From an uncultured Bacteroidaceae bacterium (GTDB lineage: Bacteria > CAIWAD01): 64,000 bases of DNA. Positions 7,074 to 62,850 of this stretch are shown here, piece after piece. The stretch is from positions 25,848 through 89,847 of the forward strand of contig CAZMSD010000003.1 of the NCBI GenBank assembly GCA_964568855.1, written 5' to 3'. Positions within the stretch are counted from its first letter, which is position 1; the number at the start of each line of letters is the position of its first letter. A program made the position numbers and the translations under genes. The notes under the pieces are model-generated. The model was not told where the DNA came from. It was given only the letters and a program-made list of their open reading frames with translations, and searched no databases.

Positions 7074-7700
7074 TTAACAGCGAACTGAGATGTCCTCGCT
7101 TCCGAAGCGCCGGGATGCTTCCTCCCAGTTCACCACTTCCCACCAGTTGCGGATGAAGTCCGGGCGCCGGTTCTGGTACTCCAGGTAGTAGGCGTGCTCC
7201 CAGAGGTCGATAACCAGCAGCGGGCGACCCTGTCCGGTCATCAGCGGATTGTCGTGGCCGGGCATGCTGATGACCTCCAGGCGATCCCCCCGGGCCGCCA
7301 GCCAGGCCCAGCCCGAGGCGAAGTGCCCGGCGGCCAGGGCGTTGAACTTCTCCTTCAGCCCGGTCAGTGAACCGAAATCCCGCTCGATGGCCCGGTCCAG
7401 CTCGGCGCTGCGCACGGATTTTCCGCCTGGACACAGAATCTGCCAGTAGAGACAGTGGTTGTAGTGACCGCCGCCGTTGTTGCGCACGGCGCTGCGCAGG
7501 TTCTCCGGCACCTGCTCCAGTCGCTGCATCAGTTCGTGCAGGCCGAGTTCGGCCAGCCCGCCGCCGGCCTGCTCGAGGGCGGCGTTGAGCTTGTCCACGT
7601 ATGTCTGGTGATGCTTGTCGTGGTGGATCTGCATGGTGCGCCCGTCCAGGTGAGGTTCCAGAGCGCCGAAGTCGAATGACAGGTCAGGAAGCTTGTGCAT
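7074..7700 (-). CDS. Fe/Mn-family superoxide dismutase.
   Basis: The product begins MHKLPDLSFDFGALEPHLDGRTMQIHHDKHHQTYV and contains DLWEHAYYL, both canonical Fe/Mn SOD motifs. An SD AAGGA lies 8 nt upstream of the chosen ATG. The longer 7817 start in the ORF track adds an implausible 39-aa leader. Confidence 0.85.
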   Translation of the reverse strand: MHKLPDLSFDFGALEPHLDGRTMQIHHDKHHQTYVDKLNAALEQAGGGLAELGLHELMQRLEQVPENLRSAVRNNGGGHYNHCLYWQILCPGGKSVRSAELDRAIERDFGSLTGLKEKFNALAAGHFASGWAWLAARGDRLEVISMPGHDNPLMTGQGRPLLVIDLWEHAYYLEYQNRRPDFIRNWWEVVNWEEASRRFGSEDISVRC

Positions 7701-7894
7701 GGAGGGTTCCTTTCTGGTTATCCAACGAATGATCTGCTGTTCGTTTTCTCGATCCAGGCCCGGCGCGGCCGGCGGCGGTGCCGCCTTTAGCGACATCGCG
7801 GCCTTGGTGAGGATCAAGGGGAAGAGTCAGCCGCAGGCTCTGCTCAAGGCAATAAATAGCATGGTATCTTAACACACTTAGGATTGCCTTGCAA

Positions 7895-18799: not shown

Positions 18800-19612
18800 T
18801 CACCCCGCGGATTTCAGGGCTTCGATGCTCGCCGAAATCACCACGTCTTCCAGGTTCCGCCCCGGCGACCAGCGACGGATCAGCTCGCGACTCTCCTCCC
18901 GGGGACGAATGCGGATCTCCACGAAGCCGGCCTCGGCTATCATGGATTCCAGGTCGTCGACGCTCGCGGCCCCCGTGATACAGGCGGAATAGTACTCGGC
19001 CTTCTCCAGCAGCTCGGCGGGAATCTCCCCCGCGGCCACCACGTCGGAGACCGCCAGCCGGCCCCCCGGCCGCAGCACGCGGTAGGCTTCGCGGAACACG
19101 GCAGGCTTGTCGGGCGAGAGGTTGATCACGCAGTTGGAGAGGATCACGTCCACGCTGCCGTCCGCCAGGGGCAGGCGCTCGATCTCGCCCAGGCGGAATT
19201 CCACGTTGTCGAGACGGCCGCGCTCGGCGTTCGCGCGAGCCTTGGACAGCATTTCCGGGGTCATGTCCACACCGATCACGCGGCCCTCTTCGCCCACTTT
19301 CCGGGCGGCCAGGAAGCAATCGAAGCCCCCGCCGCTGCCCAGGTCCAGCACGGTCTGACCCGGCCTCAGCGAAGCGATGGCCTGCGGATTTCCGCAGCCA
19401 AGGCCCATGTTGGCGCCCTCGGGCATCCCGGCCAGGTCCTCCCTGGTGTAGCCCATCTCGAGGGCCAGGTCCTCGGAGAGTTCCGCTCCGCCGTCCCCGC
19501 AGCATGAACTCGGGCCGCAACCGCAGTCCCCGGCCGCAGTCCGCTGAGCCACCGAAGCGTAGTTCTCGCGCACTTCCTGTCGGATTTCATTTCTGGTTTT
19601 CATATCGGACAC
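18800..19612 (-). CDS. arsM: Arsenite S-adenosylmethionine methyltransferase.
   Basis: The SAM-binding motif VLDLGSGGGFD is present. Conserved As(III)-binding Cys residues occur (CGCG...CC, LGCGNP, SNCVINL). Overall similarity is to ArsM/AS3MT. Confidence 0.8.
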   Translation of the reverse strand: MSDMKTRNEIRQEVRENYASVAQRTAAGDCGCGPSSCCGDGGAELSEDLALEMGYTREDLAGMPEGANMGLGCGNPQAIASLRPGQTVLDLGSGGGFDCFLAARKVGEEGRVIGVDMTPEMLSKARANAERGRLDNVEFRLGEIERLPLADGSVDVILSNCVINLSPDKPAVFREAYRVLRPGGRLAVSDVVAAGEIPAELLEKAEYYSACITGAASVDDLESMIAEAGFVEIRIRPREESRELIRRWSPGRNLEDVVISASIEALKSAG

Positions 19613-19674
19613 TCCTTTGGATTCGATTCCCTGGCAAGCACAGCGACGGAAGCACCGGGTGGACGATCAGTGGT

Positions 19675-20010
19675 TCACCGGTCTTCGTCCACGCGCATGC
19701 TGAAAACGGAAGCCAGAACGCGCGCCGCCTCCTCGTCCACCCAGCATTCCACGTGCCTGCCTCTGCGCTCCATGCGGATCAGGCCCGCCCTGCGCAGTTC
19801 CTTCAGGTGGTGGGATACGGTGGCCGGGGCCAGGTCCAGTCGATCCACCACGTTACCCACGCAACAGGCTTGCCCTTCCACCGGCCGGCAGACCCCGTTC
19901 CGGCCGCAGCAGTCAAGGTATTCCAGGAAGATCCTCAGACGATGGGGATTGGACAAGGCCTTGAACTGCTCGGCCAGTTGATTCAGTTCGATGATACTAT
20001 AATTCGACAT
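19675..20010 (-). CDS. arsR: ArsR/SmtB-family metalloregulator.
   Basis: The HTH segment is LSNPHRLRIFLEYL. A Cys-rich sensing segment DCCGRNGVCRPVEGQACC follows. It lies directly upstream of arsM. Confidence 0.8.
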   Translation of the reverse strand: MSNYSIIELNQLAEQFKALSNPHRLRIFLEYLDCCGRNGVCRPVEGQACCVGNVVDRLDLAPATVSHHLKELRRAGLIRMERRGRHVECWVDEEAARVLASVFSMRVDEDR

Positions 20011-20231: not shown

Positions 20232-21755
20232 TCAACCCAGCGAGCCCACTTCCTCCTCCACCGCCTCCAGCAGATCGCAGGAGCTCACCAGGGCCTTCAT
20301 GGCGTTGTGGTCGTCGTAGAGCGGCCGGTCCTCGTCCAGGAATTCCACGTGCTCACGGACCACCTGGCGGGCGCGCGTCACCCCAGCGCCCTTCCTGAAA
20401 TCGCGGAAATCCAGGGCCTGGGCGGCGGCCATCAGCTCGATGCCCAGCACGCCGCGGGCGTTGTCCAGGATCTGCAGGTTCTTCAGGGCCGTGTTCATGC
20501 CCATGGAGACGAAATCCTCCTGGTCCGCGGCGGCGGGGATGGACGCAACGGAAGCCGGGGCGGAAAGCATGCGCTGCTCGACGATCAGCGTGTCTGCGGT
20601 GTACTGGCTGAGCATCATGCCGGAGAACATGCCCGCGCCCTTGGTCAGGAAGGCCGGCAGACCCACGCTGAGGGCGGGATTGAGCAGCCTGTTGAGCCGC
20701 CGCTCGCTGAGCACGCTGACCATGGTGACGGCCGCCGAGACCATGTCCATGGGCAGGGAGACCGGGCTGCCCTGGAAATTGGCGCCCGTAAGCGTCAGCC
20801 GGTGCTCCGGCAGAAAGATGGGATTGTCGCCCACACCGTTGAGTTCGATCTCTACCTGCTGTTTCGCCCAGGCCAGGGCGTCGTGGGCGGCGCCGATCAC
20901 CTGCGGCGTGGAGCGCATGGAATAGGCGTCCTGCACCTTGACCTTCATCCTGCCGCTGAGCAGGTCGCTGCCCTCGATGCAGGACTTGATGGCCCGGGCG
21001 CTGCGCACGGCCCCCGCGAAACCGCGGACCTCGTGCAGGCGCACGTCGTAGGGCTTCAAATTGGCCAGCAGGGCCTCCAGGGTCATGGCGGCGGCGATCT
21101 CGGCCTGCTTGAGCCAGCGGTTGAAGTCGTGGAGTTCCAGCGCGCTGATGGCGGTCAGCAGGTTGGAACCGTTGATCGTGGCCAGGCCGTCGCGGGCGCG
21201 CAGGCCGGGAATAGGGATCCCGGCGCGTTCCAGGGCCGCGGCGCCCGGCAGGCGTTCTCCCCGGTAGAAGGCCTCGCCCTCCCCCATCATCAGCAGCGCA
21301 ATCTGGGACATGGGCGACAGGTCGCCGCAGGCTCCCACGGAGCCCTTTTGACAGACTACCGGGGTGACGCCCCGGTTGAGCATCTCCAGCAGGGTCAGGG
21401 TGATCTCGGGGCGGCAGCCGCTGTGCCCGTGGGCGTGAACGTTGATCCTCCCGGCCATGGCTCCCCGCACGTGCTCGACGGGCGCCGGCTCGCCGATGCC
21501 GGCGGAATGGTTGTAGATCAGGTAGCGCTGGAACTGCTTGACCTGCTCGTCGTTGAGCACGATCTCCGCCAGCTCGCCGATGCCGGTGTTCACGCCGTAC
21601 ATGATTTCCCGGGCCTCGATCTTCTCCTCGAGCATCGCCCGGCAGGTCTTGATGCGCTGCAGCGCGTCGGGATGCAGTTCCGCGCGTTCGTTGTCCCGCG
21701 CGATGCGGACGAGGTTTTCCACGTTGAGGTTCGCGCCGTCCAGGACGATGGCCAT
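20232..21755 (-). CDS. Histidine ammonia-lyase family enzyme (HAL/PAL, MIO-dependent) with a non-canonical Ala-Cys-Gly triad.
   Basis: 507 aa from MAIVLDGANL. It has strong HAL-family signatures (GVNTGIGE, QKGSVGACGDLSP, NPIF). The codon at 21329-21327 is TGC (Cys143) where Ser of the MIO-forming ASG triad is expected. No hutU or hutI is nearby. Confidence 0.85.
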   Translation of the reverse strand: MAIVLDGANLNVENLVRIARDNERAELHPDALQRIKTCRAMLEEKIEAREIMYGVNTGIGELAEIVLNDEQVKQFQRYLIYNHSAGIGEPAPVEHVRGAMAGRINVHAHGHSGCRPEITLTLLEMLNRGVTPVVCQKGSVGACGDLSPMSQIALLMMGEGEAFYRGERLPGAAALERAGIPIPGLRARDGLATINGSNLLTAISALELHDFNRWLKQAEIAAAMTLEALLANLKPYDVRLHEVRGFAGAVRSARAIKSCIEGSDLLSGRMKVKVQDAYSMRSTPQVIGAAHDALAWAKQQVEIELNGVGDNPIFLPEHRLTLTGANFQGSPVSLPMDMVSAAVTMVSVLSERRLNRLLNPALSVGLPAFLTKGAGMFSGMMLSQYTADTLIVEQRMLSAPASVASIPAAADQEDFVSMGMNTALKNLQILDNARGVLGIELMAAAQALDFRDFRKGAGVTRARQVVREHVEFLDEDRPLYDDHNAMKALVSSCDLLEAVEEEVGSLG

Positions 21756-21917
21756 CGGGTCCTCCGTTGGGGCCTGTTTGTCTGTTGCCGCCGGGCCCGC
21801 GTGCGGGGCTGCTCCAGCGTTTTTGGATCTGCCCAAGATACACTCGCCGGGGCTTCAGCCCAACCGGGGAGGCGCAGAAATGCCATATTTCCGTCCAGCA
21901 AGGAAGGCCCCGCCGTG

Positions 21918-23605
<1,688 letters not shown>

Positions 23606-23609
<4 letters not shown>

Positions 23610-25003
23610 ATCACGCGGACCGGGGCGAGGAGTCCTGCACCGTACTGCTGGCCGACGACGAGAAACTGCAGCGGGAGACCCTGGCCGGTTTCCTGCGCGG
23701 CGCGGGCTACCGGGTGCTGGAAGCCTCCGACGGCCGGGAGGCCCTCGAAGCGGCGCGGCGCGAGACGGTGGACCTGGTACTCACCGACCTGCGCATGCCG
23801 GAGCTCGACGGACACGGCCTGCTGCGCGAGCTGAAAGGGATGAACCCCTCCGTAGCGGTGATCGTGATGACCGCCTACGGCACGGTCGAATCGGCCGTGG
23901 AGGCCATGCAGGCGGGTGCCTTCAGCTACCTGACCAAGCCCGTGGACCTCAAGGAGCTGGCCCTGCTTCTGGACCGCGCTCAGGAGCTGAGGGAACTCGT
24001 GCGCGAGAACCGCCGGCTCCGCGAGCGCCTGGGCGAGATCGAGGAAGCCGAGCTGGTGGCGCGGACTCCCGAGATGCGCGAGGTCCTGGGAGTCGTGTCG
24101 CGGGCCGCGCCGACGAAGGCTTCGGTGCTGATCACCGGCGAGTCGGGCACGGGCAAGGAGCTGATCGCCCGCGCGCTGCACGGGGCCTCGCCCCGCCACG
24201 CGGGCCCCTTCGTGGCGGTCAACCTGGCGGCGATCCCCGAAGCGCTCGTCGAGAGCGAGCTCTTCGGGCACGAAAAGGGAGCCTTCACGGGCGCTGCGGA
24301 GCGGCGCATCGGCCGCTTCGAGCGCGCCGACGGGGGCACGCTGTTCATCGACGAGGTGGGCGACATGCCCGCGTCGGCGCAGGTCAAGCTGCTGCGGGTG
24401 CTGCAGGAGCACCGCATCGAGCGCGTGGGCGGCGGCCGGCCGATTCCCGTGGACATCCGCGTGGCGGCGGCCACTCACCAGCCCCTGGAGGAGCTCGTCC
24501 GCGGGGGCCGCTTCCGCGAGGACCTGTATTACCGCCTGAACGTGATCAGGCTGAAGCTACCGCCACTGAGGGCGCGCCGGGAGGACATCCCCGAGCTGCT
24601 GGAACACTTCCTGGGCAAGTGTCGCGACGCGATCGGCAAGGAAGTGCGGGGCTTCGACCGCCGCGCCCTGGACCTGCTGATGAAGTATCGCTGGCCGGGC
24701 AACATCCGCGAGCTGGCCAACGCGGTTGAAAGCGCCGTGGTACTGGCCAGGCGGACTCTGATCAGCGCCGGGGACCTGCCCGAAGAGATCCGGCATGCAG
24801 GCGGCGCAGCCGGGCCGACGGACGATACCGGCGACCGGGACGAAGCCGCGACGCCCCTGCGCGAGCGCCTGGAGAGCTTCGAGAAAGCGGCGGTGCTGAA
24901 AGCGCTGGAGGATTGCGGGGGCAACCGCAGCAAGGCCGCGCGCAGACTGGGCCTGAGCGAAAAGAACATCCGCGATCGCCTGAAGCGCTGGCAACTGGGA
25001 TAG
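23606..25003 (+). CDS. Sigma-54-dependent response regulator (NtrC/ZraR family bacterial enhancer-binding protein).
   Basis: It has a receiver domain (LLADDE...LVLTDLRMPELDG). The AAA+ sigma-54 activator domain carries Walker A GESGTGKE and ESELFGHEKGAFTGA (a GAFTGA motif). The C-terminal Fis-type HTH is GNRSKAARRLGLSEKNIRDRLKR. Confidence 0.9.
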
Positions 25004-25048: not shown

Positions 25049-25064
25049 TGGCACAAGGTTTGCA
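25049..25064 (+). promoter_or_regulatory. Sigma-54 (-24/-12) promoter TGGCAC-aaggt-TTGCA.
   Basis: It is a perfect match to the TGGCAC-N5-TTGCW consensus. It ends 32 nt upstream of the ATG at 25096 and lies immediately downstream of the enhancer-binding protein gene. Confidence 0.7.
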
Positions 25065-25095: not shown

Positions 25096-25521
25096 ATGAT
25101 GTATACCAGGCGACTGACAACGGGCCTGCTGCTGGCCTTGACATTTTCCCTGTCCGGCATGGACCGGCCTGGGCAGGAAGGCGTCGCAGTCGACAGCTGC
25201 TTCGTCGACCTGGACGGGAACTGCTACTGTGATACGGCGGCGGACGCCGACGGCAACGGCATCCCCGATGCCCTGGAATTCGACAGGAAGGCCGGCGCGA
25301 AGCGGATCCGCTGGGCCCATTTTCGTTCGGTTCCGGACAGCCTTGGCGGCGACAGCCTGGCCTTCCGCCGCTGGTGGGAAGCCGGTTCACGACCCTTCGG
25401 CGCCGCGGAGGCCTGGCGCAGCTGGGGGGAATGGACCGGCGCAGGGGAGAGCTCGGAATCCTGTTCCTGCACCTGTGGCTGCCCGCGCTGCCGCTGTCGC
25501 CACTGCCGGCGCCAGCCCTGA
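25096..25521 (+). CDS. Small secreted Cys-rich protein, a candidate periplasmic metal-binding protein under sigma-54 control.
   Basis: 141 aa. It has a signal peptide MMYTRRLTTGLLLALTFSLSG. An Asp-rich Ca-binding-like motif DLDGNCYCDTAADADGNGIPD follows. The C-terminal cluster is CSCTCGCPRCRCRHC. GC3 is high in frame. A perfect sigma-54 promoter lies upstream. It is unrelated in sequence to ZraP. Confidence 0.5.
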   Translation: MMYTRRLTTGLLLALTFSLSGMDRPGQEGVAVDSCFVDLDGNCYCDTAADADGNGIPDALEFDRKAGAKRIRWAHFRSVPDSLGGDSLAFRRWWEAGSRPFGAAEAWRSWGEWTGAGESSESCSCTCGCPRCRCRHCRRQP

Positions 25522-25735: not shown

Positions 25736-25785
25736 TTGTGCAGGCCGACCGCAAGGATCGGCAACCGGCAAAGAAAGAGCCCGCG

Positions 25786-27114
25786 ATGTACCGTGTCCCC
25801 GCCATCCAGTTCCTCCTGCAGATGACCGTCGCCGCGCTCGGCTGCCTGTGGCTGCTGCCGGCATGCTCCCGGGCGGCTACCCTGGACAGCTACATCGAGG
25901 AAGCTCTGCGAAATCACCCGGGACTGGCCGCCGCAGAGGCGGATCGCCTGGCGGCCGGGGAACAGGTCCTGAAAGCGGGGGTCCTGCCCGATCCCAGGCT
26001 CAGTTACGCGGGGTATCTCAGCCCCGTGGAGACTCGGGTGGGCCCGCAGCGCCAGGCACTGGCGTTGTCGCAGGCCCTTCCCTGGCCTGGGATCCTGGAC
26101 CTGCGCACCGAGTCCGCGAGGGCGGGCGTCGATCTGGCGGGGCAGAACCTGAGAGCGCTCCGGCTGAACCTCGTACACCGTGTGACACGGGCCTACGCCG
26201 ACTACTGGCTGCTGGGCCGCACGATCCGTAACACGGAAGAGCGGTTGGAGCTGCTGGCGGAGCACGCCGGCGCGGCCGAGACCGGCTACCGCAACGGCAC
26301 CCACGGCTACTCCGACCTGCTCGAGGTCCAGATGCGACAGGCGCGCGCGGATGAGGAGCTGGCGAGGTTGAACCTGAGTCGCCCCGCCCTGCAGGCGCGT
26401 CTCAACAGCCTGCTCGGGCGCGTCCGGTCTGCGGAGCACGCCTGGCCAGAGGAGCTCCCGGCCTGCGACACCCTGCCCGCGGAAAAGGTTCTGGTCGAGA
26501 GACTGCGGACCGCCAATCCCGAGTTGACGGCCCTGGCGGCGGAACTGCAACAGAACCGGGCACGTCTCGGCCTGTCGCGCCGGGAGGGCCTTCCGGCGCT
26601 GAGCCTCGGCCTGAAATGGATCCAGACGGACGAAGCCGCCATGCCAGGGGTGGAGGACAGCGGTAAGGATCCCCTGCTGCTCAACCTGGCGCTCAAGATC
26701 CCTGTCTGGCGGAAAGCCGTAAAGGCCGACGTAAGACGATCCGAGCTGCTGCTGGCAAAAAGCCGCCACCGCGCGGAGGACCGGGAGCTTGAGCTGGCGG
26801 CCGAGTTGGAACGGCTGCTCTACGCGCACCGGGAGGCCGGGCTGACGGTTGAACTGCACGAGCGCGAGCTGATCCCGCGGAGCGAGGCCGTACTGGAGGC
26901 CAGGCGCCTGGATCACGCCACGGGACGCGTGGATTTCGAGGTTCTGCTGCGCGCCGTCGAGCAACTGCTCGACCAACGCCTGGAGCTGGACCGGGCCAGG
27001 GCCAGGCTGCTGGACAGCCGCGCGGCGCTCGACGCGCTGACCGGCGCCGGCCGCCTTGAATCGACCGGGGCCGCCGGAAGCTCGAGCATGGGCTCCGGCG
27101 GCCAAGAGGAGTGA
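25786..27114 (+). CDS. Outer-membrane efflux factor (TolC/CzcC family).
   Basis: The product starts MYRVPAIQFLLQMTVAALGCLWLLPA, a signal peptide. It has the two outer-membrane-factor repeat halves with coiled-coil regions. The ORF track start at 25738 adds 16 aa. Confidence 0.8.
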   Translation: MYRVPAIQFLLQMTVAALGCLWLLPACSRAATLDSYIEEALRNHPGLAAAEADRLAAGEQVLKAGVLPDPRLSYAGYLSPVETRVGPQRQALALSQALPWPGILDLRTESARAGVDLAGQNLRALRLNLVHRVTRAYADYWLLGRTIRNTEERLELLAEHAGAAETGYRNGTHGYSDLLEVQMRQARADEELARLNLSRPALQARLNSLLGRVRSAEHAWPEELPACDTLPAEKVLVERLRTANPELTALAAELQQNRARLGLSRREGLPALSLGLKWIQTDEAAMPGVEDSGKDPLLLNLALKIPVWRKAVKADVRRSELLLAKSRHRAEDRELELAAELERLLYAHREAGLTVELHERELIPRSEAVLEARRLDHATGRVDFEVLLRAVEQLLDQRLELDRARARLLDSRAALDALTGAGRLESTGAAGSSSMGSGGQEE

Positions 27115-28538
27115 ACATGATAGAGCGAAGAGCGAACGTCTGGATCCTGATCCTCGGTCTGCTGCTGCTGGCCTTCGCCGCGGGGCGCCTGTCCACCCGA
27201 TTCGATGCGCCCGCGACGGGCGTCGACGGCGTGAATCAGGTATCACAGGACCAGACGGAATGGACCTGCTCGATGCATCCGCAGATCCGGCTGGCCGAAG
27301 CCGGCGACTGCCCCATCTGCGGGATGGAACTGGTACCCGTCGAGAGCGGTGAAGTCGGCGGACACGCTGAGGAAGCTGAGCGGGACGGCGGGGCCGCAGC
27401 AGGCTACGCCTGCGCCATGAACTGCGTGCCGCCCCTGCCCGAACCCGGCGACTGCCCGATCTGCGGCATGGAGATGGTGCCCGTGGGCGGTCCCGGTCCG
27501 GGTGTCACACAAAGCGGGGAGGAATCTCCCTTCTTCGAGCTCGACCGGCGGGCCCGCGACCTGGCCCGCCTCGAGACCAGCCCGGTCCGACGCCGCTACC
27601 TGGAGGCGGAGATCCCGCTCTACGGACGGTTCACGGTCGACGATAACCGGCTGGCGGACATCACTTCCTGGACGGCCGGAAGAATCACCAGGCTCCACGT
27701 GAAGACCGAAGGGCTGCGGGTCCGCCGCGGCGCACCGCTCTACGACATCTACAGTCCGCAGCTGATCGCCGCCCAGGAGGAGCTGCTGCTGGGATACGGC
27801 GGCGAGAGCGCCCGCGAGAAACTGCGCCTGCTGGGGCTTGACGCCGAGTCGATCTCCGGGATTGAGGAGGAAGGCTCGCCGCGCGAGGTGCTGACCATCC
27901 GCGCCCCCGCGGCAGGGACCGTGCTCGAGCTGCCGGTGCGCGAGGGCGACTACGTGCGCGAGGGCAGCCTGCTCTTCCGCATCGCCGACCTCTCCCGGCT
28001 CTGGCTGTGGTTAGAGGTCTACGAGGCCGACCTGTCTCTGGTTCACGAGGGTCTGACCCTGGAATACGAGGTGGAGGCCCATCCGGGCCGGAGCTTCAAG
28101 GCGACGATCGACTACCTGGATCCGGCCTTGGATCCCGGTACGCGCAGCCTGGGCGTCCGCGCCGCGGTTGACAACTCCGCCGGCCTCCTGAAGCCCGAGA
28201 TGTTCGCCGGCGGCACCCTCAGGTCGGTGTTGCGCCGGGAGGGCGGTTTTCCCCTCAGCGTTCCCGCCTCGGCGCCTCTGTTCACGGGCCGCCGCGCCCT
28301 GGTTTATGTTGAGGCTGAAGTGGGCCGCTACGAGGCTCGCGAAGTGCGACTGGGCCGCCGCGCCGGCGACTACTACGAGGTGCTCGAGGGCCTGGCGGAA
28401 GGCGAAGCCGTCGTGATACGGGGCGCCTTCAAGATCGACAGCTCGCTGCAGATCCAGGGCCGTACCAGCATGATGCAGCCCGAACCGGATGAATCGTCCG
28501 TGACACACGGAATCGGGGCGGGACATCATGGCCACTGA
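27111..28538 (+). CDS. Membrane fusion protein (CusB-like) with two N-terminal DCPICGM metal-binding modules.
   Basis: The GTG start overlaps the outer-membrane-factor stop. A TM segment is followed by CSMHPQIRLAEAGDCPICGMELVPV and CAMNCVPPLPEPGDCPICGMEMVPV, matching the heavy-metal-binding domain found in CusB/CopB-type fusion proteins. The remainder is the fusion-protein barrel-sandwich/beta-barrel region. Confidence 0.85.
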   Translation: MNMIERRANVWILILGLLLLAFAAGRLSTRFDAPATGVDGVNQVSQDQTEWTCSMHPQIRLAEAGDCPICGMELVPVESGEVGGHAEEAERDGGAAAGYACAMNCVPPLPEPGDCPICGMEMVPVGGPGPGVTQSGEESPFFELDRRARDLARLETSPVRRRYLEAEIPLYGRFTVDDNRLADITSWTAGRITRLHVKTEGLRVRRGAPLYDIYSPQLIAAQEELLLGYGGESAREKLRLLGLDAESISGIEEEGSPREVLTIRAPAAGTVLELPVREGDYVREGSLLFRIADLSRLWLWLEVYEADLSLVHEGLTLEYEVEAHPGRSFKATIDYLDPALDPGTRSLGVRAAVDNSAGLLKPEMFAGGTLRSVLRREGGFPLSVPASAPLFTGRRALVYVEAEVGRYEAREVRLGRRAGDYYEVLEGLAEGEAVVIRGAFKIDSSLQIQGRTSMMQPEPDESSVTHGIGAGHHGH

Positions 28539-31500
28539 GCGCGGAAGTATCACCGAAATCCCTGCGGAGCCGCGGCGGACCGAGGATCTGCTCACGCGGC
28601 TGATCCGCTTCACCCTGGATTTCCGCTTCATCGTCGTCCTGGGCCTGCTGGTGCTCTTGGGCTGGGGTCTGCGCACTGCGCCCTTCGACTGGGAGCTGGG
28701 CGGACTGCCGCGCGACCCGGTGGCAGTGGACGCCATTCCGGACATCGGCGAGAACCAGCAGATCGTCTTCACCCGCTGGCCCGGACGCTCTCCCCAGGAC
28801 GTGGAGGATCAGCTCACCTATCCCCTCAGCGCCAACCTGCTGGGCCTGCCCGGCGTCAAGACCGTCCGGGCCTATTCCATGTTCGGCTTCTCCACGATCT
28901 ACGTGATCTTCGAGGAGCAGGTGGAGTTCTACTGGTCGCGCTCCCGGCTGCTGGAGAAACTGGCCAGCCTCCCCCCCGGCCTCCTGCCCGAGGACGCCAC
29001 TCCCGTGCTGGGTCCGGACGCCACGGCCCTGGGCCAGGTCTTCTGGTACACCCTTCAGGGCGCCGACGCCGAAGGCAATCCCACCGGTGGCTGGGACCTC
29101 GCCGAGCTGCGCAGCATCCAGGACTGGAACGTCCGCCTGGCCCTGATGTCGGTCGAGGGCGTCAGCGAGGTGGCCTCGGTGGGCGGCTTCGTCCAGGAAA
29201 TCCAGGTGGACGTGGATCCCGACGCCATGCGGGCGCGCTCGGTGAGCCTGGCGGACGTGATGCACGCCCTGAAAATGGCCGGAGCGGAAACCGGGGCTGG
29301 CAGCATCGAGATCAACCGGGTGGAATACGTGGTCCGCGGCGTGGGTTTCGTCAGGGAACTCGGGGACGTGGAAGAGGCCGTGATCCGCAGTGAGGGAGGC
29401 ACCCCCGTGCGGATCCGCGACGTGGCCCGGGTGGTTCTCGGTCCGGCGCCCCGCCGCGGCGCGCTGGACGTGGGCGGCGCGGAGGCCGTGGGCGGCGTGG
29501 TGGTGGTGCGCTACGGGGAGAATCCCCTGGCCGCCATCCAGGCCGTCAAGCGGAAAATCGCCGAGATCTCGCCCGGCCTGCCCCGCAAAACGCTGCCCGA
29601 CGGCGTGGAGAGCCAGGTCCGCATCGTGCCCTTCTACGACCGCACGCAACTGATCCATGAAACGCTGTCGACGCTCAACGACGCGCTGGTGGGCGAGATC
29701 CTGGTGACCCTGATCGTGGTGCTGCTGATGGTGCGCCACCTGCGCAGCTCGCTCCTGATCGCCGGCCTGCTGCCGGCCGCCGTGCTGATCTGCTTCATCG
29801 CCATGAAACTGGGCGGCGTGGAAGCGAACATCGTGGCTCTCTCCGGCATCGCCATCGCCATCGGCACCATGGTGGACATGGGCATCGTGGTCAGCGAGAA
29901 CATCCTGAGACACCTGGCGGAAGACGCGGGCGGAGGAAAACCTCGCGGGCGCGTCCTCAAAGCCACGCGCGAGGTGGCCGGCGCAGTGCTCACGGCCCTG
30001 GCCACCACGGTGGTCAGCTTCCTGCCGGTCTTCACATTGGAGGCCGCCGAGGGGAAGCTCTTCCGTCCCCTGGCCTATACCAAGACCTTCGCCCTAGTGG
30101 CGGCCCTGCTGCTGGCCCTGGCCGTGATCCCGCCCCTGGCCGAATTCCTGTTCACCCGCCGTCTCCGTCGCGGCGGAGTCCTCGGCCTGGGACTGTTGCT
30201 GGCCACGGCGGGAACCTGGCTGCTGTTCGGCGCCTACCCCGCCGCGGGCCTGCTGGTGCTGCTGGCCGGCCTGGTTAAACTGGCGGAACCCTGGCTGCCC
30301 GGCGCCCTGGAGCCCTGGCGCAGGAAACTGGACCTGGCCCTGGTGGTGCTCCTGGCCGCATACTGGCTCGCCGAGCACTGGCTGCCGCTGGGGGGCGACC
30401 GGCCCTTCGCGCTTAACCTGGCCCTGGTGGCCTTGCTGATCTTCGGGCTGCTGGCCTTCTACCGGCTGGTCCTGCGCTCCTACGACGGGTTGCTCGACTG
30501 GTGCCTGTCGCACAAGACGGTGTTCCTCGCGCTGCCCCTGTCCATGCTCGTGCTGGGTGGCCTGATCTGGAGCCGCACGGGGGACGAATTCATGCCCCCG
30601 CTGGACGAGGGTTCCTACCTCTTCATGCCCAGCACCATGCCCCACGCCTCCATGAGTGAAGTGCAGGAAGTGCTGCAGTACCAGGACGCGAGCATCCTGA
30701 ACATCCCGGAAGTATCACAGGTCGTGGGCAAGCTGGGCCGGGCGGAGACGCCGCTGGACCCCGCGCCGCTGTCCATGATCGAGACCGTGATCAACTACCT
30801 GCCGGAGTACCTGCAGGGCGCCGAGGGCGGTCCGCGGCGCTTCCGCTTCGATCCCGACAGCGTGGACCTGGTGCGCGACGCGGAAGGCCGCCCCCTGTCG
30901 GCGCCGGACGGTGAGCCCTATCGAAGCCGCGGCGCCTACCCCCGCGACTCGGAGGGGCGCCTGATCCCCGACGCGGGCGGGCGCTACTTCCGCAACTGGC
31001 GCGCGGCGCTGGATCCCGGGCTGAATCGCGGGCGCGCCGCCTGGGAGGGCATTCAGCGGCCGGACGACATCTGGTCGGAAATCGTTCGCGCGGGCGAGAT
31101 CCCCGGAACCACTTCGGCGCCGAAACTGCAGCCCATCTCCACGCGCCTGGTGATGCTGCAGAGCGGCATGCGCGCCCCCATGGGGATCAAGATCAAGGGC
31201 CCCGACCTGAAGAGCATCGAGAGCGCCGCGCTGAAGATCGAAGAGCTGCTGCGGGAGATTCCCAGCGTCAACAGGCTGGCGGTGGTGGCCGACCGCGTGG
31301 TGGGCAAGCCCTACCTGGAACTGCACGTGGACCGCGAGCGGATCGCCCGCTACGGCATCAGCATGGGCGCGGTGCAGGAAGTGATCGCCGCCGCGGTGGG
31401 CGGGCGCACCCTGGCCCACAGCGTGGAAGGCCGGGAGCGCTACGCCGTGCGGGTACGCTACCAGCGCGAGGAGCGCGACAACCTCGAGGCCCTGCGCCGG

Positions 31501-32409
31501 ATCTACGTGCCGGCGCCGGACGGCCGTCGCGTTCCCCTGGAGCAGCTGGCCGAGCTGCGCTACCAGCGCGGCCCCCAGATGATCAAGAGCGAGGACAATT
31601 TCCTTCTGGGCTACGTGCTCTTCGACGGCCGCGAAGGCCTGGCCGAGGTGCAGGTGGTGGAAGAGGCCCGGCTTGAAATCGAGCGGCGCCTGGCGGAGGG
31701 CGAGCTGGTCCTGCCCTCGGGAGTGAGTCTGAGTTTCGCGGGGACCTACGAGAACCAGCTGCGCGCCGCCCGAAAGCTGCTGGTGGTCATTCCGCTGGCC
31801 CTGGCGATCATCCTGGTGCTGCTCTTCCTGCAGTTCCGCTCGCTGGGCACCACCGTCCTGGTCTTCAGCGGGGTGGCCGTGGCCTGGGCCGGGGGCTTCC
31901 TGCTGATCTGGCTCTACGGGCAGCCCTGGTTCCTGGACTTCGAGATCTTCGGCGCCCAGTTCAGGGAGCTCTTCCAGGTGCATCCCGTGCATCTCAGCGT
32001 GGCGGTCTGGGTGGGTTTCCTGGCTCTCTTCGGCATCGCCACCGACGACGGGGTGATCATGGCCACCTACCTGGACCAGAGCTTCCGCAGTCGCAGGCCC
32101 GGGAGCCCGCACGAGATCCGTGAAGCCGTCAAGGAGGCCGGCGGCCGGCGGGTGCGGCCCTGCCTGATGACCACGGCCACCACGGTCCTGGCCCTGCTGC
32201 CCGTCCTGAGTTCCCAGGGCCGCGGCGCGGACGTGATGGTGCCGATGGCGATTCCCGTCTTCGGCGGAATGCTGGTGGAGGTGGTCACCATGTTCACCGT
32301 GCCGGTGCTCTATTCCGCCGCGAAGGAATGGCGCCTGCGGTCCCGGTCGCCGGGCCCGGACCGCGACGTCCGGGACGCGGACTCGCTGATCGCGGAAAGC
32401 CGACCATGA
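28528..32409 (+). CDS. Heavy-metal efflux RND transporter (CusA/CzcA-like), extended 1293-aa form.
   Basis: Its HME-RND core is homologous to the czcA at 1791-4886. It carries ~250 extra residues: four additional hydrophobic helices after TM6 (approx aa 545-680) and an insertion in the second periplasmic loop (approx aa 740-860, rich in R/D/P). Confidence 0.85.
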   Translation: MATERGSITEIPAEPRRTEDLLTRLIRFTLDFRFIVVLGLLVLLGWGLRTAPFDWELGGLPRDPVAVDAIPDIGENQQIVFTRWPGRSPQDVEDQLTYPLSANLLGLPGVKTVRAYSMFGFSTIYVIFEEQVEFYWSRSRLLEKLASLPPGLLPEDATPVLGPDATALGQVFWYTLQGADAEGNPTGGWDLAELRSIQDWNVRLALMSVEGVSEVASVGGFVQEIQVDVDPDAMRARSVSLADVMHALKMAGAETGAGSIEINRVEYVVRGVGFVRELGDVEEAVIRSEGGTPVRIRDVARVVLGPAPRRGALDVGGAEAVGGVVVVRYGENPLAAIQAVKRKIAEISPGLPRKTLPDGVESQVRIVPFYDRTQLIHETLSTLNDALVGEILVTLIVVLLMVRHLRSSLLIAGLLPAAVLICFIAMKLGGVEANIVALSGIAIAIGTMVDMGIVVSENILRHLAEDAGGGKPRGRVLKATREVAGAVLTALATTVVSFLPVFTLEAAEGKLFRPLAYTKTFALVAALLLALAVIPPLAEFLFTRRLRRGGVLGLGLLLATAGTWLLFGAYPAAGLLVLLAGLVKLAEPWLPGALEPWRRKLDLALVVLLAAYWLAEHWLPLGGDRPFALNLALVALLIFGLLAFYRLVLRSYDGLLDWCLSHKTVFLALPLSMLVLGGLIWSRTGDEFMPPLDEGSYLFMPSTMPHASMSEVQEVLQYQDASILNIPEVSQVVGKLGRAETPLDPAPLSMIETVINYLPEYLQGAEGGPRRFRFDPDSVDLVRDAEGRPLSAPDGEPYRSRGAYPRDSEGRLIPDAGGRYFRNWRAALDPGLNRGRAAWEGIQRPDDIWSEIVRAGEIPGTTSAPKLQPISTRLVMLQSGMRAPMGIKIKGPDLKSIESAALKIEELLREIPSVNRLAVVADRVVGKPYLELHVDRERIARYGISMGAVQEVIAAAVGGRTLAHSVEGRERYAVRVRYQREERDNLEALRRIYVPAPDGRRVPLEQLAELRYQRGPQMIKSEDNFLLGYVLFDGREGLAEVQVVEEARLEIERRLAEGELVLPSGVSLSFAGTYENQLRAARKLLVVIPLALAIILVLLFLQFRSLGTTVLVFSGVAVAWAGGFLLIWLYGQPWFLDFEIFGAQFRELFQVHPVHLSVAVWVGFLALFGIATDDGVIMATYLDQSFRSRRPGSPHEIREAVKEAGGRRVRPCLMTTATTVLALLPVLSSQGRGADVMVPMAIPVFGGMLVEVVTMFTVPVLYSAAKEWRLRSRSPGPDRDVRDADSLIAESRP

Positions 32410-33511: not shown

Positions 33512-35731
33512 ATGCTGAAGGAACTCGACAACCTGCTGAACGACGAGAGCACCGTGATCGCCCAGGACGAAACCCTCAACTTCGAGGACTACCTGGATCT
33601 GCTCCTGCGCGCTCCCTGGATCACCCGCACCACCCCGCAGCTCCTGCACGACATGATCCTGAGTCACGGCGTGGAACACGCGATCCAGCCCGGGAAACCG
33701 GTCAAGCACACCTATCATTTCTTCGAGACGCAGGAGATGGTGGGTCCCTTCGTGGTCTTCGGCCAGCAGAAGGCGAAAGAGAACATCGTCGAGAAGTTCG
33801 ACAATGCCGCCCGGGGCGCCGAGGCCTGGAAACGCCTGTGGATCCTGCTGGGCCCGCCCGGCTCCGCCAAGTCGCGGTCGATGGACGCCGTCAAGCTGGC
33901 CCTGTTCAACTACTCGCGCAGCGAGGAGGGCCGGACTTACACGCTGCTGCTGCCCTCGCTGGACGAGCGCCTGCGCGACCGGGCCGTCTTGGAGCAGGAC
34001 GGTATCTGGTACCTGCAGAGCCCGCTCTTCGAGCGCCCGCTGCAGGTGATTCCCGAGGAGGTCCGGCCGGGCTTCATCGACCGCCTGAACGAGCGCCTCG
34101 ACCAGCAGGCGCTGGCGGAATTCCTGCACCGTCACCCGCAGTACGACAACGATTACCGCATCCAGATCGACGGGCGCATCTCGCCCTTCAGCGACTACGT
34201 CCTGCAGGACTTCATGCGGGCCAAGAATCTGAACCTGCAGGAGCTCTTCCCCTACCTCAAGGTGCGCCGAATGATCTTCAACGCCACCACCAAGGCGGGG
34301 ATCGGCTCCTACACCCCTCGCGACGAGAAGAGCCAGGAGGCCGGCTCGCTGGTGGGCAACGTGGACTACAGCCTGCTGCCGCGCTTCGGCAGCGAATCGC
34401 ACCCCCTGGTGCACGACTACAAGGGCGAACTCTGCGCCGGCGCCAACGGCTTCGTGGAAATCCACGAGATCCTCAAGCTCACCGACCGCTTCCTCTACGA
34501 GCTGCTCTTCGCCACCCAGGACCGTTTCTTCAAGCCCGAGGGCCAGCCGCCGATCCCCTTCAACGGCGTGATCATCGGCCACACCAATTTCCACGAATAC
34601 AACATGTTCATCGAGAACCGCACCTTCGAGGCGCTGCGCAGCCGCACCACCTTCATCGAGATGCCGCTCTCGGTGCACTTCAAGGACGAAGAATTCATCT
34701 ACAACAACACCTATTCGAATAATACCCGGGACTGGAACAAGGAGCGCCGGCACCAGGCCCACGTCGCTCCCCATTCCATCGAGATGCTCAGCCTGGTGGC
34801 CGTGATGTCGCGGCTCTACGCTTCGAACCAGAATCCGAACCTGAGTCTCCTGCAGAAGGCGCTGATCTACGCCGGCCGCAGCGACAGCGGCGTGGACAAC
34901 AACATGGCGCGCACGATCCTCGAGGAATTCGAATACGTCAAACCCTCGGAGGGGACCTTCGGCCTGGACCCGCGCTTCATCCAGAACATCTTCGAGACCA
35001 CCGAGCATTTCCAGATCAACGAGTACGCCGCGAATCTGATGAAGCTCGAGCAGGACAGCGGCGGCCAGGCGATGCTGACCTCCATCGCGCTCGAGAACCC
35101 CTGTGTCACACCGCTGGACCTCTACGTGCGCATGGAGCACGCGCTGAAGGAGACCTTCGCCACCCAGAAGGCGACCCTCAGCCACTACGTGGAGAAGGTC
35201 CTGCCGCTGGCGCGCGGATGGATCTTCGGCCAGATCGCCAGCGACGTCTACAGCGCCATCCTGCGCGACGACTCGGTCATCGAGACCACCTGGAAAAAGT
35301 ACACGGACCACGTGCGGGCCTACGCCCACAACACCACGGTCAAGCACGACGTGACACAGGCGGACGCCCAGCCCGACGAGAAGTTCATGCAGACCATCGA
35401 GCAGTACCTGGGCGTACCCGAGAAGGACGTCTTCCGCAAGGAACTCTCGGACGCCATCGCCACCGTCAGCCACCAGGTCCTGCTGGCCGACGAGCCCTCC
35501 TACATGAGCGCCATCAAGCGTTACGTGTTCGAGAACGAGTTCAAGTCGGGCGAGAACATGAAGCTGCTGGGCTGGATCAAGAGCGGCACCAGCACCGCGA
35601 CGACGCACGCCCGCGAGCGCGAGCACCTGAACGAGACGATCCGCTACCTGATGGAAAACCGGGGCTGCTGCGGGAAGTGCGCCTTCCAGGCGCTGACCAT
35701 CACCGCCAACGCCTCCAGCATCTCGGCCTGA
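33512..35731 (+). CDS. prkA: PrkA-family serine protein kinase (AAA+ ATPase, YeaG/PrkA).
   Basis: The Walker A motif is ILLGPPGSAKS. PrkA-characteristic blocks are present (GELCAGANGFVEIHE, LLFATQDRFFKP...PFNGVIIGHTNFHE). The protein is 739 aa. Confidence 0.9.
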   Translation: MLKELDNLLNDESTVIAQDETLNFEDYLDLLLRAPWITRTTPQLLHDMILSHGVEHAIQPGKPVKHTYHFFETQEMVGPFVVFGQQKAKENIVEKFDNAARGAEAWKRLWILLGPPGSAKSRSMDAVKLALFNYSRSEEGRTYTLLLPSLDERLRDRAVLEQDGIWYLQSPLFERPLQVIPEEVRPGFIDRLNERLDQQALAEFLHRHPQYDNDYRIQIDGRISPFSDYVLQDFMRAKNLNLQELFPYLKVRRMIFNATTKAGIGSYTPRDEKSQEAGSLVGNVDYSLLPRFGSESHPLVHDYKGELCAGANGFVEIHEILKLTDRFLYELLFATQDRFFKPEGQPPIPFNGVIIGHTNFHEYNMFIENRTFEALRSRTTFIEMPLSVHFKDEEFIYNNTYSNNTRDWNKERRHQAHVAPHSIEMLSLVAVMSRLYASNQNPNLSLLQKALIYAGRSDSGVDNNMARTILEEFEYVKPSEGTFGLDPRFIQNIFETTEHFQINEYAANLMKLEQDSGGQAMLTSIALENPCVTPLDLYVRMEHALKETFATQKATLSHYVEKVLPLARGWIFGQIASDVYSAILRDDSVIETTWKKYTDHVRAYAHNTTVKHDVTQADAQPDEKFMQTIEQYLGVPEKDVFRKELSDAIATVSHQVLLADEPSYMSAIKRYVFENEFKSGENMKLLGWIKSGTSTATTHAREREHLNETIRYLMENRGCCGKCAFQALTITANASSISA

Positions 35732-35732
35732 C

Positions 35733-36848
35733 ATGAAACGCCACACGCCGCGGCAGCACATTCCCGAGACCCTCCTGCGGACCGTCGAGGTCAGCCGGAT
35801 CGACTCCTCGGAATCCGAGGGCGCCTTCAACGAGTTCATCGAGGAACAGCTCGAGGACCTGGTGGATCACATCCTCAACGAGGGCGACCTGGGCAACCGT
35901 GGAAGCGACATCATCGTCGAGATGGACGACATCCAGCCGCCCACGCTGGTCTACGGGGATACGGGCGGCGGCGGGAGCGGACAGGGACAGGGTCCCGGCG
36001 GCGAGAAGGGCCGCATCAGCTTCGGATTGCCCTTCGAGAAGTTCATGGATCTCGTGGCCGCCAAGTTGCAGCTGCCCGACCTGACCAAGGAGGGCAAGGG
36101 CCGGATCAAGCAGATCAGCTACGAGTTCAAGACCTTCGGTCCTTCCGGGGCGATCCTCGACAAGCGGCGCACTTTCCGGCGCGCGCTGAGGACCAGCATC
36201 GGAACCGGCGTCTACGCCCCCGACCGGGGCAAGCTCGATGTCTTCGTCCGCAGGCGCGACCGGCGCTTCAAGCTGCCGGTGCGGGTGGAGCGGCCGCGCT
36301 ACAAGGCGGTGGTCTTCTACATGGGAGACATCTCCTACTCGACCTACGGCGAGCGGCTCGAGATCGAGAAGCGCATCGCCAACTTCATCCACAACTGGCT
36401 GGATTACAACTACGGGCCGAACAACGTGGAGCACCGCTTCTTCGTGCACGACGCCGCGGCCTACGAGGTGCGCCCGGAGGAATTCTACACCGTCAAGAAC
36501 GCGGGCGGCACGCAGGCCTCCGTGATCTTCGAGCTGGTGTCGCAGATCGCCTTCAACGAGTACGACACCGAGTCCACGAACTTCTACGCCTTCTACTTCG
36601 GCGACGGCGAGCTCTTCGGCAACGACGCCGGGGACATCGTGCGCATCATCGCCGAAACCATGCGCCCCACCTTCAACCGCATCGGGGTGGTGGAAGTGCG
36701 GCCCAGCCGCATCAGCCAGCTGGCCAACAAGCTGAACGAGACCTTCGAGCACGACCGCGTCGTGCGCGTGGGCGAGATCCGCGAGAAGAAGCAGACCATC
36801 GAAATCATCAAGCTGCTGTTCAGGAGCGAGGGCCGTGAGGAGCATTAG
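35733..36848 (+). CDS. yeaH: DUF444/UPF0229 protein (YeaH/YhbH), the vWA-like partner of PrkA.
   Basis: It starts 2 nt after the prkA stop. It has the Gly-rich loop GDTGGGGSGQGQGPGGEKG and the conserved blocks FVRRRDRRFKLP and AVVFYMGDISYS. Confidence 0.85.
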   Translation: MKRHTPRQHIPETLLRTVEVSRIDSSESEGAFNEFIEEQLEDLVDHILNEGDLGNRGSDIIVEMDDIQPPTLVYGDTGGGGSGQGQGPGGEKGRISFGLPFEKFMDLVAAKLQLPDLTKEGKGRIKQISYEFKTFGPSGAILDKRRTFRRALRTSIGTGVYAPDRGKLDVFVRRRDRRFKLPVRVERPRYKAVVFYMGDISYSTYGERLEIEKRIANFIHNWLDYNYGPNNVEHRFFVHDAAAYEVRPEEFYTVKNAGGTQASVIFELVSQIAFNEYDTESTNFYAFYFGDGELFGNDAGDIVRIIAETMRPTFNRIGVVEVRPSRISQLANKLNETFEHDRVVRVGEIREKKQTIEIIKLLFRSEGREEH

Positions 36849-38454: not shown

Positions 38455-38494
38455 CAAATCCGCGGGACCGATCCTGGATTCAACGAGGAAGGAA

Positions 38495-45777: not shown

Positions 45778-46192
45778 GACCGCCTCGAGTGAACGCCGAC
45801 TGATAAAATATGAAACGCCCGCTGACCGAAATCAGCGGACGCTGGTTGGTACATCGCCCTCCAACCCGAAACCCATCCCCCATGCTTCAGGATCGGCAGG
45901 GTGACGACTGAATTATCCTGCAAACCGCAAGCCTCGTGCCAATCAGACAAAGAATACTTGGTTAAGCTAAGATTATTGACTTGCACTCAGCTGGATATTT
46001 CCCGAGCCCGATTCTGAACAGACGCCCGCGGAAAACGGGCGGATATTGAACATTTCAATTAAGGGACATCATCCAGGCCGTCGGAATGGCTGTCCCCGGG
46101 CCCTCGAGTCTAAAGACGCCCCATTGGATTGTCGATTTCAAGGATACGCACATGGCGAGTAATAGTGCACCCGCCGATGCCCCAGGCTGAAC

Positions 46193-57000: not shown

Positions 57001-57261
57001 TCAGGGTGCTTCATTCCCGGATGATCCCCCCTTCGGCGCGTCGTCCGCGGAGGTATCACCGGTCGCTGCGTCCTTGGGAGATTCTTTCGCCGGCTCGTCC
57101 TCACCGCGCTCGCCCTTGGCGGGCTGCTCATCGAAGAGCATGCGCAGGGCGGGCGTCTTCAGGTCGTCGAACTGCCCGCTCCGTGCGGAGCGGATGAAGG
57201 CGACCAGCATTCCCGCGGCGATCAGGACGGCCAGGGGCAGGACGAGGTAGATCACGGACAT
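57001..57261 (-). CDS. ccoS: cbb3-type cytochrome oxidase maturation protein CcoS/FixS, with an acidic C-terminal tail.
   Basis: MSVIYLVLPLAVLIAAGMLVAFIRSARSGQFDDLKTPALRMLFDE matches the CcoS consensus. The protein is 86 aa with a ~35-aa Glu/Asp/Lys-rich tail. Its start overlaps the ccoI stop. Confidence 0.7.
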   Translation of the reverse strand: MSVIYLVLPLAVLIAAGMLVAFIRSARSGQFDDLKTPALRMLFDEQPAKGERGEDEPAKESPKDAATGDTSADDAPKGGSSGNEAP

Positions 57262-61100: not shown

Positions 61101-61124
61101 CTTGAGATCCCGTTTTACTAGGCC

Positions 61125-62657: not shown

Positions 62658-62850
62658 CCGGAACCGCCGCCTTTCGGTGATTCAACCTCCCCGGTACCCC
62701 GGAGATATTTGGTGCTTTCCCATCCGGGCACGCAGGAGCGGTCCGCCGTGCAATGCTTCGGCGAACCGGCTCAACCCGTTTCTGCGCGTCGCGCCGGACC
62801 TGCCGCGTCCCGATGGAAAGCCCAAGGATTCCGTCGGGACGGGATGGGAT

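Follow-up and report, generated by a model that had tools for sequence, protein, structure and literature searches.

Natural Ala-Cys-Gly triads in a slowly evolving clade of histidine ammonia-lyase paralogues as probable precursors of the methylideneimidazolone cofactor

Can an ammonia-lyase build its 4-methylideneimidazol-5-one (MIO) cofactor from a triad whose central residue is cysteine, and which reaction would such an enzyme catalyse? The question is raised by a gene in a 64,000-nucleotide stretch of DNA from an uncultured Bacteroidaceae bacterium (contig CAZMSD010000003.1; the whole stretch is called the window below). The gene, located at 20232..21755 on the minus strand, encodes a 507-aa protein of the histidine ammonia-lyase (HAL) family with Ala142-Cys143-Gly144 as the presumed MIO precursor, whereas all aromatic ammonia-lyases characterised so far are stated to need Ala-Ser-Gly (bioRxiv 10.64898/2026.04.22.720169). 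As described below, we consider it probable that MIO arises here from Ala-Cys-Gly by elimination of H2S, and that the protein is a HAL-type lyase, most likely acting on L-histidine, and a distinct paralogue.

The coding sequence was assigned on the basis of the open reading frame (ORF) and its translation, a full-length match to PF00221 and the HAL fold of an AlphaFold2 (AF2) model. An ATG start at 21755-21753 is preceded, 5 nt upstream, by a GGAGG Shine-Dalgarno sequence at 21765-21761 (together 21753..21765, minus strand, read from the sequence), and nearly all orthologues are 507 aa long, matching the ORF length from this ATG. A longer TTG-started ORF (534 aa) and an overlapping plus-strand ORF (1146 aa) were rejected as artefacts of the 67% GC content. 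The protein matched PF00221 end to end (profile positions 1-466 of 466) with 532.9 bits against a cut-off of 27.3 and an E value of 8e-160. Its alignment with Pseudomonas putida HAL was gap-free through residue 223, with Cys143 aligned to Ser143, and the numbering of Tyr53, His83 and residues 142-145 is identical in the two proteins. Note that the catalytic and cyclisation residues are numbered as in P. putida HAL, so that Phe329 corresponds to Phe327 of the window protein. The AF2 model had a predicted local distance difference test (pLDDT) score of 77 and a predicted template modelling score of 0.83, and template modelling (TM) scores of 0.81-0.86 were obtained against solved structures of HAL, tyrosine aminomutase and ergothionase (7tqr, 1b8f and 2ohy among them). 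The fold also matched that of tyrosine ammonia-lyase structures. The best solved relatives were HALs (7tqr and 1gkm), at approximately 34% identity. The model holds the triad as unmodified residues, and pLDDT was below 50 at residues 139-144.

The triad is encoded by GCC TGC GGC at 21324..21332 on the minus strand, and the TGC codon at 21329-21327, reported in an earlier sequence-only reading of this DNA, was read directly from the window, giving GSVGACGDLSP; the protein therefore carries Ala-Cys-Gly instead of the X-Ser-Gly precursor of MIO-dependent lyases and mutases. One explanation would be that a TCC or AGC codon, each of which differs from TGC by a single base, was misread or misassembled. 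However, a protein identical over all 507 aa recurs, with the same flanking genes, on 12 contigs that were assembled independently (ENA and JGI), and the codon for Cys143 was TGC in 4 of 4 fetched loci encoding the identical protein. Furthermore, Cys was found in 74 of 88 related loci, with both TGC and TGT in use. A read or assembly error is thus excluded for practical purposes, and we give this already refuted explanation a negligible chance. The search of related genomes that the sequence-only reading had proposed thus found the same Cys. Its caveat that the orthologues might uniformly carry Ser did not materialise, given that 113 of the best 120 close homologues carry Cys and 7 carry Ser. 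Cys is also not the oddity of one gene that it had seemed, but the majority state of a large orthologous clade in more than 10 phyla.

The pattern of residues at position 143 provides the main evidence on how the triad is used. Among 194 unique clade members, this residue was Cys in 173 (89%) and Ser in 21 (11%), with no other residue observed. The codons at this position in the 88 loci were TGC (57), TGT (17), AGC (8), TCC (4), TCA (2) and TCG (1); hence Ser uses both the AGY and the TCN codon sets, both one step from TGY. Arg, Gly, Tyr, Phe and Trp were absent at position 143 in the 194 orthologues, although each is one mutation away from TGY. Cys and Ser are the two residues able to β-eliminate to dehydroalanine. 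In a neighbour-joining (NJ) tree, the Ser members fell in approximately 14 separate groups of 1-4 sequences, and parsimony on a tree including outgroups gave 16 changes at this position; P0049 (Ser) and P0055 (Cys), for example, are 94.7% identical. The Ser-bearing members retain every catalytic residue, and their identity to the clade consensus (0.856) is close to that of the Cys members (0.871). Given that Ser recurs in some 14 groups with catalytic residues and conservation unchanged, Cys and Ser appear functionally interchangeable in this clade. In addition, both TGC and TGT are used and GC content at third codon positions (GC3) of the clade genes ranges from 0.20 to 0.97, indicating that Cys has been retained through saturating synonymous change and is no recent accident.

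The residues required for cyclisation and catalysis were invariant. Specifically, Ala142, Gly144, Asp145, Phe329, Tyr53, His83, Asn195, Gln277, Tyr280, Arg283, Met382 and Glu414 were 100% conserved in the 194 clade members. This set includes the residues for cyclisation and MIO shielding (Gly144, Asp145 and Phe329) as well as the HAL catalytic and substrate residues (Tyr53, His83, Asn195, Gln277, Tyr280, Arg283, Phe329, Met382 and Glu414), whose roles in HAL, together with that of the Ser-His selectivity switch, have been described (PMC11432326). A position at which only Cys and Ser are allowed, flanked by invariant cyclisation residues, fits the pattern expected of a side chain that is lost as MIO forms. 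The same Cys/Ser-only pattern is consistent with the suggestion in the sequence-only reading that Cys can still give dehydroalanine and MIO. Langer, Lieber and Retey are said to have found in 1994 that the engineered S143C variant of P. putida HAL matures into a fully active enzyme.

On the basis of these features, we propose that the protein would act as a functional MIO-dependent ammonia-lyase of the HAL kind and of the homotetramer type. After folding, the backbone of Ala142-Cys143-Gly144 would cyclise through attack of the Gly144 nitrogen on the carbonyl of Ala142, with the conserved Asp145 and Phe329 driving the reaction, and the ring would lose water. The Cys143 side chain would be β-eliminated as H2S, where that of Ser leaves as H2O. 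The product would be 4-methylideneimidazol-5-one, so that genes with Cys and genes with Ser would yield the same mature enzyme in chemical terms. The steps of catalysis would then be those of HAL: MIO would activate the substrate and Tyr53 (codon at 21597..21599, minus strand, aligned to Tyr53 of P. putida HAL), the HAL-type base, would abstract the β-proton, while Arg283 and Asn195 would hold the carboxylate, and His83, Met382 and Glu414 the imidazole ring. The HAL-type catalytic residues and the imidazole-pocket residues make the conversion of L-histidine to trans-urocanate and NH3 the most likely reaction.

An alternative is that Cys143 is kept in the mature protein and MIO is not formed, so that a thiol or another modification gives new chemistry, or the protein works as a MIO-less lyase like ergothionase. 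MIO-less members of PF00221 do exist (bioRxiv 10.64898/2026.04.22.720169), and sequences with GSVGYL were found among the family representatives; moreover, Cys exceeds Ser beyond a neutral codon-counting prediction, and the two Ala-Cys-Gly clades described below have Arg188-Asp189-Phe314-Val348 in common. However, repeated replacement by Ser in otherwise unchanged orthologues would destroy a thiol-specific function, and Ala142, Gly144, Asp145 and Phe329, which are needed only for cyclisation, are invariant. In addition, MIO-less lyases lack the triad entirely and use substrates with a trimethylammonium group (bioRxiv 10.64898/2026.04.22.720169), whereas the window protein has Ala-Cys-Gly-Asp and carries Met381 at the position of ergothionase Lys384. 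We therefore regard retention of the thiol as quite improbable.

The clade in which this triad occurs is large and strongly constrained. Among the matches listed, close homologues at 78-84% identity number in the thousands, and when one genome was scanned for each GTDB species, relatives turned up in at least 568 species genomes and more than 10 phyla, including Ignavibacteria, Anaerolineae and other Chloroflexota, Acidobacteriota including Aminicenantes, Eisenbacteria, Zixibacteria and WOR-3, as well as Marinimicrobia, Calditrichota, Fibrobacterota and Bacteroidota. Pairwise identity within the clade was 73-100% with a median of 81%, and 266 of the 507 positions were at least 97% conserved. 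Recent horizontal spread, which could have explained identities near 80%, was ruled out, since GC3 of the clade genes was correlated with GC of the host flanks (r = 0.98), and the nearest neighbour had the same phylum label in 49 of 74 cases compared with 15 expected by chance. The similarity is thus attributable to constraint rather than to recent transfer, pointing to strong purifying selection. The nearest sister sequences are 48-58% identical to the clade and have Gln330 in common with it; beyond them, identity falls to approximately 42%, the ordinary HAL level. When the same pairs of genomes were compared, divergence was approximately 20% for the Ala-Cys-Gly gene and approximately 31% for the adjacent canonical hutH, a ratio of about two thirds. 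These values suggest that the clade is an ancient and very slowly evolving paralogue, distinct from the HutH of hut operons. They also bear on the possibility that the protein is an inactive or decaying paralogue in which a change from Ser to Cys was merely tolerated. Although its stand-alone position, the lack of pathway neighbours and the presence of a canonical hutH alongside it in some genomes would suit such a pseudoenzyme, a median identity of 81% over more than 10 phyla despite the wide GC3 range, the extent of near-invariant positions and the invariance of every catalytic residue make it highly improbable.

Which substrate the enzyme uses is less clear-cut. The sequence-only reading had left His, Tyr and Phe as candidates, of which His accords best with the data: His83, Met382 and Glu414 are invariant, whereas the scores for models of the other activities were far below their cut-offs (tyrosine 2,3-aminomutase TIGR03832, 373 vs 501 bits; tyrosine ammonia-lyase NF053541, 325 vs 700; phenylalanine ammonia-lyase TIGR01226, 199 vs 519), and the His-Leu or Phe-Leu switch of such enzymes is replaced by an Asn-His switch with Glu414 kept. 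The HAL subfamily model NF006871 / PRK09367 was passed narrowly (533.2 bits vs a cut-off of 524). Nevertheless, several observations weigh against a plain histidase. The window protein scored 507 bits on the hutH equivalog model TIGR01225, below the cut-off of 539.15. Alignment of the selectivity-switch residues, as the sequence-only reading had advised, revealed Asn82-His83 (codons at 21507..21512, minus strand) where characterised HALs carry Ser-His; Asn82 is 100% conserved in the clade and occurs in 1% of canonical representatives, 95% of which have Ser. Residue 330 is Gln in the clade, whereas His330 is 99% conserved in canonical HALs. Neither hutU nor hutI was found nearby in the window or in 84 related loci, and four Ignavibacteria-type loci have a bona fide hutH directly upstream of the clade gene; such coexistence speaks for a role, and perhaps also a substrate, unlike that of classical histidine catabolism. 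Furthermore, our own codon counting indicates that strict neutrality between Cys and Ser predicts mostly Ser at equilibrium, and the observed 89% Cys hints at a preference for Cys.

Further changes invariant in the clade are Phe59→Ile, Pro135→Cys, Leu149→Met, His151→Gln, Lys188→Arg, Glu189→Asp and Cys284→Ser. Asn82-His83, Gln330 and Arg188-Asp189 mark the clade. Some of these changes underlie a second explanation, namely that the same Cys-derived MIO serves another reaction, with a histidine analogue (N-methyl- or thio-substituted), another imidazole amino acid, or a 2,3-aminomutase activity. Fully conserved changes beside the pocket (Ser82→Asn, His330→Gln, Phe59→Ile, Leu149→Met, His151→Gln and Thr409/Ser410→Ala/Ala), the score below the hutH equivalog cut-off, the tandem arrangement with canonical hutH in some genomes, the absence of hut context and the unusually high conservation of the clade all speak for it. 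However, every residue for binding the carboxylate and imidazole of His and for elimination is invariant, the aminomutase and the two aromatic lyase models fit poorly, as given above, and Lys384, which binds the thiolate in ergothionase, has Met381 as its counterpart here. We consider this explanation unlikely, and L-histidine remains our preferred substrate.

The gene neighbourhood offered no further guide to function. The statement in the sequence-only reading that the gene is a stand-alone member of the HAL family without hutU and hutI neighbours held, in that none was called within ±10 kb of the lyase gene and no urocanase or imidazolonepropionase gene was present among the ORFs of the 64-kb window scanned against Pfam. 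When all ORFs within ±6 kb were clustered over the 84 loci, no neighbour was conserved across phyla; the commonest neighbour family, HflX, occurred in 15 loci and reflects Ignavibacteria synteny only. An assignment of function from gene neighbourhood was accordingly abandoned. The canonical hutH genes upstream of the clade gene are located at L069:8250-9848, L022:7908-9473, L015:640-2205 and L011:8310-9917, and their triads are ASG in L069 and SSG in L022, L015 and L011. The L069 and L022 copies, the only two scanned, scored 647 and about 661 bits on TIGR01225. Since a canonical hutH adjoins the clade gene in these four loci, the clade coexists with HutH rather than replacing it. The physiological role of the clade is probably other than the standard Hut pathway step.

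In the window, an arsR/smtB-family regulator gene and the arsenite methyltransferase gene arsM (18800-20010, minus strand) lie directly downstream of the lyase gene on the same strand, after a 221-bp gap; ArsM passes NF008823 with 362 bits against a cut-off of 263. Divergent from the lyase gene, a two-component system consisting of a ZraSR/AtoSC-like sensor kinase and a sigma-54 response regulator is encoded at 21918-25003, followed by a 141-aa ORF (25096-25521) and, beyond, an efflux operon of the OEP/CzcB/CzcA type (CzcCBA-like; 25738-32409). Perfect sigma-54 −24/−12 elements (TGGCAC-N5-TTGC) were found at 25049-25063 (plus strand), just upstream of the 141-aa ORF and the efflux operon, and at 45927-45941 (minus strand); none is located upstream of the lyase gene, around which we also found no convincing sigma-70 promoter or terminator. 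These flanking genes are present, as the sequence-only reading had described them, but their association with the lyase gene is incidental: it is not conserved in the 84 loci, and the arsR/arsM arrangement occurs only in contigs of the window's own organism. A functional link to arsR/arsM or to the sigma-54 two-component and resistance-nodulation-division efflux module was thus rejected, given that these neighbours are absent elsewhere and the sigma-54 elements are not upstream of the lyase gene. A riboswitch or other RNA element was likewise rejected, since Rfam gave no match in the whole window. Elsewhere in the window, 33512-40996 (plus strand) holds a PrkA - DUF444 - SpoVR cluster of the yeaG/yeaH/ycgB type and, after it, another PrkA paralogue (833 aa), which is divergent.

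The window also encodes cbb3-oxidase accessory proteins (a FixI-like P-type ATPase, DsbD_2, FixH, FixG and CcoP; 57252-63411, minus strand) and an Fe/Mn superoxide dismutase (7074-7817, minus strand), indicating that the host is not a strict anaerobe. Proteins with a Por_Secre_tail of the type IX secretion system are encoded near these genes, which suggests that the host belongs to the FCB group. An interpretation of Cys143 as an adaptation of anaerobes was not supported, given these cbb3-oxidase maturation and superoxide dismutase genes and the isolates from Roseococcus and Ferrovibrio, presumably aerobes, in a second Ala-Cys-Gly clade.

Ala-Cys-Gly was not confined to the window clade. Among the best 150 representatives of the family after clustering at 50%, the triad was ASG in 121, ACG in 8, SSG in 8 and TSG in 1, and 12 had no motif match; some of these 12 are MIO-less and carry GSVGYL. 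One protein, P0189 (L089:8001-9572), is an otherwise canonical HutH with Ala-Cys-Gly. It scored 651 bits on TIGR01225, has Lys188-Glu189 and all catalytic residues, and is encoded on 7 contigs as a stand-alone gene; by its sequence, it would be the natural equivalent of the S143C mutant. The second clade, of the P0201 type, has Ala-Cys-Gly in 104 of the best 120 P0201 homologues (P0201 and P0274-P0389) and includes the isolates Roseococcus sp. YIM B11640 (P0385) and Ferrovibrio sp. (P0356). It keeps Ser82, His83, His330 and Glu414, and has the changes Gln277→Arg and Tyr280→Leu. Its genes stand alone or adjoin a canonical hutH; P0201 itself is encoded after a canonical hutH with an ASG triad, as part of a hutU-hutI operon (L091:1576-9536, also L092). 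We had taken this placement as proof of histidase activity with Ala-Cys-Gly, which was withdrawn in view of Tyr280→Leu and Gln277→Arg. Ser accounts for approximately 11-13% in both Ala-Cys-Gly clades. A GSVCACGDL variant with a second Cys (Gly141→Cys) was observed in both clades (P0072, P0106 and P0107; P0281, P0282 and P0284).

The second clade is only approximately 42% identical to the window protein and differs in keeping Ser82 and His330 and in Gln277→Arg and Tyr280→Leu, but it has Ala-Cys-Gly and Arg188-Asp189-Phe314-Val348 in common with the window clade. At positions 188/189/314/348 (numbered as in the window protein), canonical HALs have Lys-Glu-[Ile/Val/Leu]-[Asn/Ser/Gly/Ala], whereas both Ala-Cys-Gly clades have Arg-Asp-Phe-Val. 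A single origin of the two clades, suggested by this signature, found no support in NJ bootstraps with these four columns removed, which united the clades in 0 of 40 replicates of this distance tree. Either positions 188/189/314/348 co-evolve with Cys143, or the distance tree misleads; the shared residues may reflect convergent co-evolution with Cys143. In a more far-reaching proposal, the Asn82/Gln330 Ala-Cys-Gly clade would be not a histidase but an enzyme that has so far gone unrecognised, although nearly universal in many phyla without cultivated members (Ignavibacteria, Anaerolineae, Acidobacteriota, Zixibacteria, Eisenbacteria and WOR-3) with its own substrate or reaction, for example on a modified histidine or as a MIO-dependent histidine 2,3-aminomutase. 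Cys143 would then be no neutral substitute for Ser, but would have been positively selected together with the convergent Arg188-Asp189-Phe314-Val348, since it would alter how or when the cofactor matures, with release of H2S. We find this proposal doubtful in comparison with a Cys-derived MIO in a HAL-type lyase most likely acting on L-histidine.

The central Ser of the MIO triad was held invariant in the literature that we checked, yet most members of two large natural clades carry Cys. The PROSITE signature likewise specifies Ser here. No description of natural Ala-Cys-Gly as a MIO precursor was found in the open-access literature searched, in line with the sequence-only reading; nevertheless, the variant is common in sequence databases and has merely gone uncommented. 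As a result, annotation by motif and the mining of genomes for MIO enzymes would overlook or wrongly label thousands of proteins. Nature has apparently repeated the S143C experiment at scale, providing a system for studying the effect of the leaving group (H2S vs H2O) on autocatalytic cofactor maturation. A stand-alone HAL paralogue maintained at approximately 80% identity across phyla with genomic GC of approximately 30-68% points to an important function in abundant sediment and subsurface bacteria. More intriguing than Cys itself are the reason for the preference for it and the job of this ultra-conserved paralogue.

Among the known systems close to the window protein is HutH (EC 4.3.1.3; P. 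putida HAL, 1b8f/1gkm; Thermoplasma acidophilum, 7tqr), with the same fold, length, and catalytic and substrate-binding residues. The window protein differs from HutH in Cys for Ser143, the Asn-His switch, Gln330 and Arg-Asp for Lys188-Glu189, and its clade in lying below the equivalog cut-off and outside hut operons and in evolving more slowly in the same genomes. The engineered S143C variant of P. putida HAL has the same triad at the same position and reportedly matures into active enzyme, but it was made in the laboratory by a point mutation in a canonical HutH, whereas Cys is natural and clade-wide here. Documented natural variation of the precursor tripeptide, which is still compatible with MIO, concerns the first residue, with the central Ser treated as invariant; here it is the central residue that varies. 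Finally, the MIO-less trimethylammonia-lyases (ergothionase, 6s7j; histidine betaine lyase; SO_3057/SO_3299) resemble the window protein in fold (TM score 0.86), in their imidazole substrates and in often being encoded outside hut operons. Unlike it, however, they have no triad and need a trimethylammonium leaving group, and Lys384 of ergothionase corresponds to Met381 of the window protein.

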